The notes beneath the pieces are model-generated. The model was not told the origin of the DNA. It saw nothing but the letters and a program-made list of their open reading frames with translations, and did not search any database. A stretch of 64,000 bases of DNA from Candidatus Bathyarchaeota archaeon (lineage in GTDB: Archaea > Thermoproteota > Bathyarchaeia > 40CM-2-53-6), in assembly GCA_963706285.1 (NCBI GenBank), contig CAVPLU010000004.1, positions 256,001 to 320,000 on the forward strand. The letters are read 5' to 3'. The position numbers and the translations under genes are program-made. Below, piece after piece: positions 7,968-8,777 of the stretch. How positions within the stretch are numbered: the stretch's first letter is position 1; each line of letters begins with the position of its first letter.

Positions 7968-8030
7968 TGGGGCAAGGATGAACCGATAAACAGAATATCA
8001 CACATGCCATAACTATGAGAGGGAGACTAG

Positions 8031-8300
8031 TTGAAGAAGAGACTGATGGACATACTCGCGTGCCCGATCGACAAGGCGTATCCACTCGAACTTCATGTCT
8101 TTGAGGAGAAAGACGAAATCGTCTCGGGGATGCTCGTTTGCTCCAAATGCAATAGATGGTATCCAATAATAGACGAGATCCCACACATGCTTCCGGATGA
8201 CCTCAGAGAAGAGAAGGAGGATATAGCCTTCCTTCGGAAATGGAAGGAGAAGATCCCTCAGGCAACGCTCTCCGAAGGCAAACCGTTCAAGCTTGCGTAG
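8031..8300 (+). CDS. Trm112 family methyltransferase activator
   Basis: LMDILACPIDK, CSKCNRWYPIIDEIPHMLPDDLR. Confidence 0.9.
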   Translation: MKKRLMDILACPIDKAYPLELHVFEEKDEIVSGMLVCSKCNRWYPIIDEIPHMLPDDLREEKEDIAFLRKWKEKIPQATLSEGKPFKLA

Positions 8301-8315
8301 CTGGACTTCCCGATA

Positions 8316-8331
8316 GATGAAGGTTTTATAG
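8316..8331 (+). promoter_or_regulatory. BRE/TATA promoter of tRNA-Gln
   Basis: GATGAAGG-TTTTATA at 8316-8330, about 25 nt upstream of the inferred leader start (~8355). Confidence 0.6.
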
Positions 8332-8370
8332 CGACATCGTGGTCGGGGTAGTCTTGGCCCGGGGCTCGAT

Positions 8371-8535
8371 AGCCCGGTGGGGGAGCAGTAGGTTGCTCCG
8401 CCGAATGTAGTGGACAAAGGAAACCGTATTCCGTCTAGGCATAGCGGGCTTTGGTTCTCGCTCAACGAGAAGAAACCCGCCGACGGGAGTTCGAATGGTT
8501 CGTCAGAGAACCCGAACATCTCCCCCGGGCTACCA
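8371..8535 (+). tRNA. tRNA-Gln(UUG) with four BHB introns (8381-8405, 8418-8438, 8455-8474, 8496-8518) and encoded CCA
   Basis: Removing the four inserts gives a 76-nt cloverleaf AGCCCGG TG GTGT AGTGGACAA GCAT A GCGGG CTTTGGA CCCGC CGAC GGGAG TTCGAAT CTCCC CCGGGCT A CCA, with the archaeal Gln A1-U72 pair. Each junction forms a 4-bp helix flanked by 3-nt bulges. Confidence 0.93.
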
Positions 8536-8621
8536 TCAACCACCGTCATTAACTTAGAGGTGGTTTCTCATCAGGGCAATCAACGCCCATGACCCACGCC
8601 TTTCCGGCCTCGATGAGAACT

Positions 8622-8666
8622 CTCAAAGTGGCCCCTCTTTCCCGGAAAGCGGCCCCTCTTTGGAGC
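8622..8666 (+). repeat. Dispersed ~45-bp element, copy 1 (two AAAGYGGCCCCTCTTT units, 21-bp period)
   Basis: CTCAAAGTGGCCCCTCTTTCCCGGAAAGCGGCCCCTCTTTGGAGC; near-identical inverted copy at 55322-55367. Confidence 0.8.
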
Positions 8667-8777
8667 ATGTGATCAACCATGGAGGCTCTCCAGCATGATA
8701 GCCTTCATAGGGAGATTTTCCGAGAACGATTTAGCGGAATCGGAAGAAGTCCCTTTGATTGCATCACTAGCGTTTCA

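Follow-up and report, generated by a model that had tools for sequence, protein, structure and literature searches.

The 64-kb window analysed here, a stretch of 64,000 nucleotides (nt) from contig CAVPLU010000004.1 of a Candidatus Bathyarchaeota archaeon, carries at 8371-8535 (+) what is very probably a tRNA-Gln(UUG) gene interrupted by four introns, each of which can fold with adjoining exon bases to give the bulge-helix-bulge (BHB) structure and would be cut by the splicing endonuclease EndA. Five exons of 10, 12, 16, 21 and 17 nt join into a spliced product of 76 nt, and introns of 25, 21, 20 and 23 nt take up 89 of the 165 nt of the locus. The features of the gene, with the evidence for each, are as follows.

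8371-8380 (+): exon 1, tRNA nt 1-10; ARAGORN and a custom BHB finder, no mismatches in 6/6 full-length congeneric orthologs
8381-8405 (+): intron 1, position 10/11, 25 nt, HBh' form; BHB check and covariation
8406-8417 (+): exon 2, nt 11-21; ARAGORN, finder and ortholog conservation
8418-8438 (+): intron 2, position 21/22, 21 nt, HBh' form; BHB check and covariation
8439-8454 (+): exon 3, nt 22-37, including the anticodon UUG; ARAGORN, finder and ortholog conservation
8455-8474 (+): intron 3, canonical position 37/38, 20 nt, hBHBh' form with the anticodon stem as outer helix; BHB check and covariation
8475-8495 (+): exon 4, nt 38-59; ARAGORN, finder and ortholog conservation
8496-8518 (+): intron 4, position 59/60 in the T loop, 23 nt, full hBHBh' form with the T stem as outer helix; BHB check and covariation
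8519-8535 (+): exon 5, nt 60-76, with the encoded CCA at 8533-8535; ARAGORN, finder and ortholog conservation

When spliced in silico, the locus is read by ARAGORN as a tRNA-Gln(ttg) of 76 bases with an encoded CCA, an acceptor stem of 7 base pairs (bp), a D stem of 4 bp (two of them G-U), an anticodon stem of 5 bp and a T stem of 5 bp. ARAGORN and the BHB finder both return the UUG anticodon in a 7-nt loop, U33, a purine at position 37, standard arms and the terminal CCA. The first pair in the ARAGORN drawing is A1:U72, which we take to be a glutamine identity mark in archaea. The exons are colinear within the 165 nt, lying neither at separate loci nor in the permuted order that defines split and permuted genes. 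A preliminary description of this DNA had proposed the same five exons as a well-formed tRNA-Gln(UUG) of 76 nt, had put the intron share at 89 of 165 nt and had expected the spliced product to score as a glutamine tRNA; the ARAGORN cloverleaf, a finder solution with zero stem mismatches and the computed exon and intron lengths reproduce all of this, as the BHB check does for every helix, bulge and cut after the second bulge nucleotide that had been quoted.

In the BHB layout applied here, the four exon bases that end 2 nt before the 5' cut pair with the four intron bases that end 2 nt before the 3' cut. In each of the four introns the central helix is fully paired (4/4), a 3-nt bulge stands on either strand, and the outer or the inner flanking helix has at least 2 bp. 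With a hyphen marking the cut, the 10/11 intron combines the central helix CGGU/GCCG with bulges GG-G and AA-U, 7 inner bp and 1 outer bp; the 21/22 intron combines GGAC/GUCU with AA-A and AG-G, 4 inner bp and no outer pair; the 37/38 intron combines CUUU/GAAG with GG-U and AA-A, 5 outer and 2 inner bp; and the 59/60 intron combines UUCG/CGAA with AA-U and CA-U, 5 outer and 5 inner bp. In RNAfold the 165-nt precursor reaches a minimum free energy (MFE) of -72.8 kcal/mol (z = -4.35), which none of 200 shuffled sequences equals, and its MFE structure is an extended cloverleaf in which intron 4 forms the exact hBHBh' motif and intron 2 nearly forms its own.

The suspicion that standard finders could miss such a gene was borne out for the two tools applied. 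ARAGORN reports no tRNA in the whole window and, for the unspliced locus with 30-nt flanks, nothing with or without its intron mode; likewise, Rfam at gathering scores yields no family in the window, and its tRNA model, run over the whole 2.1-Mb genome at E <= 1, gives 23 matches, only 16 of them above cut-off and none at this locus. The custom finder walks back from each CCA, jumps BHB-compatible inserts and demands a strict cloverleaf, and the exon boundaries listed above are its only zero-mismatch solution in a 1-kb slice. A loose run (introns up to 150 nt, one mismatch) returned 47 loci, many of them noise, among them sprawling solutions with four or five introns of about 100 nt each, and a run with inserts of at most 70 nt and a reversed-genome control was therefore used. 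This run gives 17 loci in the genome, 11 of them without stem mismatch and with a perfect T-loop motif, whereas the reversed, non-complemented genome at identical settings gives one locus with one mismatch, one T-loop deviation and five 'introns'. Although the sprawling solutions of the loose run illustrate how enough freedom in placing inserts lets some stretch splice in silico into a cloverleaf, the 17 loci against one imperfect one, the compactness of the tRNA-Gln(UUG) locus (introns of 20-25 nt, zero mismatches) and the same architecture in its orthologs reduce the probability of a chance arrangement to almost nothing.

A minus-strand open reading frame (ORF) of 178 amino acids (aa) at 8013-8549 overlaps the whole tRNA gene. 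It was rejected as a protein because it has no Pfam match and because orthologs carry a 1-nt indel inside it, and it is likely mis-called as a protein gene by gene finders.

Conservation, covariation and copy number

Orthologous loci are present in eight of nine congeneric genomes, six of them full-length and two cut by contig ends. All six full-length orthologs are unchanged over the 76 exon nt and keep the same four introns with fully paired central helices, and the variation within the genus sits in the intron loops and flanks, including intron indels (25 versus 22 nt, 20 versus 19 nt). The 7-nt loop of intron 2 varies freely. In intron 4, the inner helix shows a U:A to C:G double change in one ortholog (L006), and an A-to-G change in the central helix keeps a U-G pair.

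The same architecture extends beyond the genus. Pattern searches over all 105 genomes of the order found the 10/11-interrupted Gln form in 30 genomes (36 matches, four of which are not tRNAs) and the uninterrupted Gln junction in 61 genomes (101 matches). Spliced alignment of 59 distinct full-length Gln genes gives one intron in one gene, two in 24, three in 11 and four in 23, and the four-intron genes occur in several families of the order. At 10/11 the central helix is fully paired in 27 of 27 distinct genes, and inner pairs 2-4 swap between GC, CG, UA and AU. At 21/22 it is fully paired in 10 of 11, with an A:U to U:A swap in the central helix itself; at 37/38 it is paired 4/4 in 45 of 51 genes and 3/4 in the other six, and base 34 covaries with the intron (U:A in 24 genes, C:G in 16); at 59/60 it is fully paired in all nine distinct genes. 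The pair tables of the 59 genes thereby contain compensatory changes for all four introns of the tRNA-Gln(UUG) gene.

Similarity and pattern searches of the genome give just this locus and a tRNA-Gln(CUG) paralog (C12:127304-127468), which makes it the only Gln gene with a UUG anticodon found; an intron-less tRNA-Gln(UUG) elsewhere, the outcome that the preliminary description had held up against its own reading, did not appear in them. Additionally, an ARAGORN call of 'tRNA-Gln(ttg)' at C4:371614-371726 was rejected: it has a G3:U70 acceptor pair and solves as an Ala-CGC gene with two introns, and ARAGORN mis-assigns several tRNAs of this genome.

A tRNA gene in decay, loaded with insertions and yielding no working tRNA, would fit the fact that standard finders see nothing at the locus and that no run on record as RNA contains it. 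Such decay is very hard to reconcile with exons that stay unchanged in six of six full-length orthologs while flanks and intron loops diverge, with BHB helices that covary across families, with the standing of the locus as the only UUG Gln gene found and with a conserved promoter box upstream, and we give it only a few chances in a hundred.

Candidate enzymes and the probable route of splicing

The genome encodes candidates for each processing step. Two ORFs, one of 186 aa at L101:1456-2016 (-) and one of 174 aa at L102:1474-1998 (-), carry both EndA domains, with PF01974 matches of 87.9 bits (86.3 on the ORF) and 44.8 bits (43.8 on the ORF). The 186-aa ORF is alpha-like: its best matches are the catalytic subunits of crenarchaeal heterotetramers (2cv8, 3p1z_B, 3ajv_B and 2zyz_B; E values of 4e-40 to 4e-31), and it aligns end to end with the S. 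tokodaii EndA, including the N-terminal GKPxGIxKPK. The 174-aa ORF is divergent and has His and Tyr where the alignment expects Tyr and His; which EndA residues are catalytic, and what constitutes the 'Crenarchaea-specific loop', are assumptions on our part. RtcB matches of 326 and 261 bits lie at C4:105729-107043 (-) and cover profile positions 1-243 and 236-426, and the RNase P RNA is present (183.7 bits).

A precursor of about 180 nt would be transcribed from a box resembling a transcription factor B recognition element (BRE) and TATA box about 45 nt upstream of the gene. Each intron would fold with its adjoining exon bases into a BHB, a two-subunit (alpha/beta) EndA would cut in the 3-nt bulges, RtcB would join the exons and RNase P would trim the leader, the CCA being encoded. 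For introns 3 and 4 the anticodon and T stems, left intact, would serve as outer helices, and these two introns should therefore be cleavable in a cloverleaf-like precursor. Intron 2 would draw on D-loop bases, and the central helix of intron 1 would need tRNA nt 5-8, which otherwise form part of the acceptor stem.

An alternative is that the gene is real, but that intron 1 or intron 2, which lack an outer helix, is excised in a different way, or not until the other introns have gone. Both introns have the relaxed HBh' form, the BHB of intron 1 is absent from the MFE fold, and ordered removal is described for other multi-intron tRNAs in the consulted sections of PMC3728597 and PMC8450103. Against this, the central helix is fully paired in 27 of 27 genes at 10/11 and in 10 of 11 at 21/22, and the inner helices of both covary. 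Moreover, the putative alpha subunit resembles the crenarchaeal heterotetramer enzymes, and the (alpha-beta)2 type of EndA is said to cleave relaxed motifs at many positions (PMC4033280, as far as consulted). A separate or delayed route for these two introns is therefore improbable, if less so than decay of the whole gene.

Several observations weigh against reading 8371-8535 as a working gene. The metagenome-assembled genome (MAG) is 89% complete and 7.5% contaminated, and a second Gln(UUG) copy may thus exist. RtcB is split over two overlapping reading frames in the assembly, a pattern that could reflect a frameshift, an assembly error or a split gene. Cutting of the precursor by the host EndA, in activity as in specificity, is a prediction from sequence. 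Introns 1 and 3 take shifted registers in the MFE structure and do not form exact BHBs there, and introns 1 and 2 are almost devoid of an outer helix, which is the relaxed HBh' form. Additionally, among four sequencing runs labelled as RNA, two flagged 'probably DNA' gave only unspliced pieces of the contig and two gave none, with no exon joints in any, an outcome uninformative either way, and no run on record as RNA contains the locus (window 8250-8650). Taking both sides together, we put the probability that 8371-8535 is a single functional tRNA-Gln(UUG) gene of a Bathyarchaeia archaeon with four EndA-cut introns at about 0.9.

A leader copy of the 5' acceptor strand

The region upstream of exon 1 contains two conserved elements, the second of which bears on how intron 1 might be tolerated.

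8319-8332 (+): BRE/TATA-like promoter box GAAGGTTTTATAGC; GAAGGwTTTATAGC at the same distance in 7/7 full-length genus sequences
8355-8364 (+): leader 'acceptor mimic' TGGCCCGGGG; copy of the 5' acceptor strand without U8, conserved in the genus

The box at 8319-8332 probably acts as the promoter, and other solved tRNA genes of the genome have similar A/T boxes upstream, at a distance shorter by about 12 nt. Between this box and the acceptor copy, a conserved block TCGGGGTAG (window 8343-8351) is nearly invariant in seven genus sequences, with one 1-nt deletion and one G-to-A change. Pairing of the acceptor copy TGGCCCGGGG with the 3' acceptor strand, plus the last part of the T stem, can reach 8-10 bp. 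When the precursor is folded together with its leader in RNAfold, the leader pairs with the 3' strand and nt 5-8 are free to pair with the intron.

Copies of this kind accompany introns at 8/9 to 10/11 in three tRNA families of the order.

Gln, 10/11 intron: copy in 25/25 genes (six families, both isoacceptors), Watson-Crick run of 6-9, at least 7 in 23/25; uninterrupted genes: run of at least 6 in 3/26, at least 7 in 1/26
Arg-CCG, 9/10 intron: copy in 9/9 genes of the genus, duplicated exactly and in tandem over 10 nt in two; genes without the intron: 0/3
Cys-GCA, 8/9 intron: copy in 17/17 clear cases; genes without the intron: 0/4

Over the three families, a copy is present in 51 of 51 clear cases with an 8/9 to 10/11 intron versus 3 of 33 genes without one; the Gln count excludes the four non-tRNA matches, two genes cut by contig ends (L122 and L161) and one with a poor alignment (L137), and the related genomes that enter these counts are non-independent samples, which weakens the comparison. 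Each copy matches the acceptor sequence of its own tRNA. In this genome the run is 7-8 for the Gln, Arg-CCG and Cys-GCA genes, 2-4 for 20 rows with a first intron at position 14 or later, and 3 for four other early-intron rows (Pro-TGG and three doubtful models). The genes concerned here are, besides tRNA-Gln(UUG), a tRNA-Arg(CCG) with a 9/10 intron at C12:74233-74333 (+) and a tRNA-Cys(GCA) with an 8/9 intron at C12:81727-81828 (-), each with an upstream copy of its own 5' acceptor strand. In two other genomes (G008 and G002) the Arg copy repeats 10 nt exactly and in tandem, and two alternative 5' splice sites would therefore yield the same mature tRNA. In every family the distance from an upstream TATA-like box to the copy is about 27-32 nt and, given the usual archaeal spacing between TATA box and transcription start, the copy would sit at the 5' end of the transcript.

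These observations suggest that the leader copy pairs with the 3' acceptor strand while nt 5-8 sit in the BHB, which would free those bases for the intron-1 motif, and that it could also tether the 10-nt 5' exon between cutting and ligation. With the native leader, the central helix of intron 1 reaches a mean predicted probability of 0.60 across the 25 Gln genes, as against 0.02 when the leader is removed and 0.23 when it is shuffled; the native leader is better than none in 25 of 25 genes and better than shuffled in 19 of 25. The effect is uneven: for the tRNA-Gln(UUG) of the window the helix reaches only 0.087 with the native leader (0.000 without and 0.022 shuffled), and for Arg-CCG and Cys-GCA it stays near zero, with the native leader not better than shuffled (0/8 and 9/20). 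Two Cys genes of genus g3 with an ambiguous insertion of 36-37 nt near positions 8-10 also lack a copy. The association between leader copy and intron is thus an observation, and the mechanism is one that we infer, because the folding test fails for Arg and Cys and the gain is small for the gene of the window.

The main alternative is that the upstream copy has no role in splicing, being either the relic of a small tandem duplication that travels with the intron allele or an element for transcription start or RNase P recognition. The exact 10-nt Arg-CCG duplicates in two genomes look like such a relic, three of the 26 uninterrupted Gln genes retain a run of 6-7 nt, which also speaks against a link to the intron, and the negative thermodynamic test for Arg and Cys is what a copy without a splicing role would give. 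However, six families retain the copy amid leader bases that are unalignable on either side, it fits its own acceptor sequence in three unrelated tRNA families, and of 33 genes that have no 5'-proximal intron only 3 show a run of at least 6. A copy with no part in splicing thus keeps roughly one chance in three, and we lean, by a narrow degree, towards block 8355-8364 serving as a stand-in partner for the 3' strand and as a tether for the 5' exon. If true, this would explain how an intron persists although its splicing motif competes with the acceptor stem.

Other interrupted tRNA genes and comparison with known systems

The tRNA-Gln(UUG) gene is one of many interrupted genes in this genome. 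A relaxed search of 35 candidate loci solved 28 and left seven unsolved, which makes the census a lower bound, and three doubtful models (C13 Gly-CCC, C4:55589 Leu-CAG and C4:155272 Ala-GGC) as well as three near-duplicate contig copies (two on C20, one of C1/C6) were dropped. The 22 distinct solved genes carry 47 introns, at least 2.1 per gene, and none is intron-free. As for the duplicates, the tRNA-Met and tRNA-Thr loci of C4 occur again, little changed, on C20, and C1 and C6 hold near-identical tRNA-Arg(TCG) genes with three introns; they are probably strain-variant contigs in a bin with the contamination given above.

The tRNA-Gln(CUG) paralog, on the plus strand of C12, has four inserts of its own at 21/22, 29/30, 37/38 and 59/60. 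In two of these the central helix is paired 3/4, and the gene has neither the 10/11 intron nor the leader copy. The last exon of tRNA-Gln(UUG) (17 nt) and about 150 nt downstream recur at four places (window 8519-8680, C12:127380-127611, C3:122514-122669 (-) and C18:10422-10573 (-)). In the C3 and C18 copies the similarity begins exactly at the exon-5 boundary, upstream of which the sequences are unrelated. The far end of the repeated stretch (about window 8590-8680), which includes an internal direct repeat, turns up on at least 10 contigs. The origin may be an att-like duplication or a mobile repeat of small size.

Another example is the tRNA-Pro(GGG) gene at C3:165484-165727 (-) (locus L164), which has five BHB introns, all with fully paired central helices: one of 32 nt at 7/8, one of 64 nt at 13/14 and three more of 20, 19 and 30 nt. 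Six congeners that have three introns and an unbroken 5' end give exactly the same spliced product, and the congeners without the extra two introns are 91-99% identical to this gene over the shared part. The two 5' introns therefore look like very recent gains, and the five introns here versus three there, with the same mature product, represent before-and-after alleles. No other copy of the two extra introns was found in this genome, and an independent contig of another genome (G001) shares the extra inserts. Additionally, an initiator-like tRNA-Met(CAT) at C4:386121-386265 (-) has three introns, one of which lies inside the 3' acceptor strand and leaves a last exon of 5 nt; in the central helix, the place of the 5' acceptor strand is taken by GGGG from this intron. 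For this mirror image of the 8/9 to 10/11 introns, no obvious trailer or leader copy was seen.

Standard software misses these tRNA genes because nearly all detectable ones in the lineage are interrupted. Counts of tRNAs are used to grade the quality of MAGs (the 18-tRNA rule), and such genomes therefore look poorer than they are and seemingly lack decoders such as tRNA-Gln(UUG).

The preliminary description had supposed that four introns in one tRNA gene may exceed described cases. This holds against the older literature, which gives up to three introns per tRNA gene in the sections consulted (PMC4390854, 2015; PMC4033280, 2014; PMC8450103, 2021), but not against an October 2026 bioRxiv preprint (10.64898/2026.10.13.758758), which in the text consulted gives, for Asgard focal families, an average of 2.2 inserts per gene and a maximum of 'up to five in a single gene', nor against the five-intron tRNA-Pro(GGG) of the same genome. 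That preprint is the only archaeal report of more than three introns found in searches aimed at such counts or at leader elements, the supplementary tables of two Asgard papers lying outside the search. In its main text 'Bathyarchae' and 'leader' each occur zero times, and a literature search on Bathyarchaeia and tRNA introns returned no paper linking both among the matches listed.

With the Thermoproteales, of which Pyrobaculum calidifontis tRNA-Glu(UUC) and P. islandicum tRNA-Pro(UGG) are examples with three introns each (PMC4390854, sections consulted), this system shares short BHB introns at canonical and non-canonical sites, a tolerance of relaxed motifs, a two-gene EndA apparently of crenarchaeal type and genes missed by classic finders. 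It differs in exceeding the maximum of three stated there, with four introns in tRNA-Gln(UUG) and five in tRNA-Pro(GGG), and in its host lineage, Bathyarchaeia, whose relatives and DNA runs are found in metagenomes of peat, wetland and soil; the PMC4390854 text consulted for the comparison also mentions no leader copy of the acceptor strand. The nuclear multi-intron tRNAs of the red alga C. merolae, a eukaryote (PMC3728597, sections consulted), also carry BHB introns, with sites in the D arm and T loop as well as at 37/38, but have at most three, and their ordered removal was demonstrated by reverse transcription PCR, whereas the present evidence is computational only. In the split and permuted tRNAs of Nanoarchaeum equitans, Caldivirga and Cyanidioschyzon merolae (PMC4090602 and PMC4033280, as far as consulted), pairing of leader or trailer sequence builds or holds the EndA substrate, a likeness to the role proposed here; the present gene, by contrast, is colinear and in one piece, and its leader is not in the BHB, but could replace the 5' strand on the 3' acceptor strand.

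The closest parallel is found in Asgard archaea. In a 2023 preprint on Atabey- and Freyarchaeia, 92-95% of tRNA genes have introns according to the text consulted, and in the Asgard families of the 2026 preprint, as described in its consulted text, almost every tRNA gene is interrupted, with about 2.2 inserts per gene versus at least 2.1 over the 22 solved genes here, up to five in one gene, many introns in the D arm and genes that annotators miss. Those genomes come from wetland soil, and the runs with parts of the present stretch are labelled as peat, wetland, soil and sediment metagenomes; the phylum is a different one. Whether extreme tRNA interruption has, besides the Asgard families, a second and independent hotspot in this order of Bathyarchaeia, with an evolved leader cis element, mentioned in none of the texts consulted, that licenses and tethers 8/9 to 10/11 introns, is in our estimate an evenly balanced question. 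The intron count is no longer a record; what makes the gene worth following is the lineage, the intron density, the introns recently gained by tRNA-Pro(GGG) and the leader copy.

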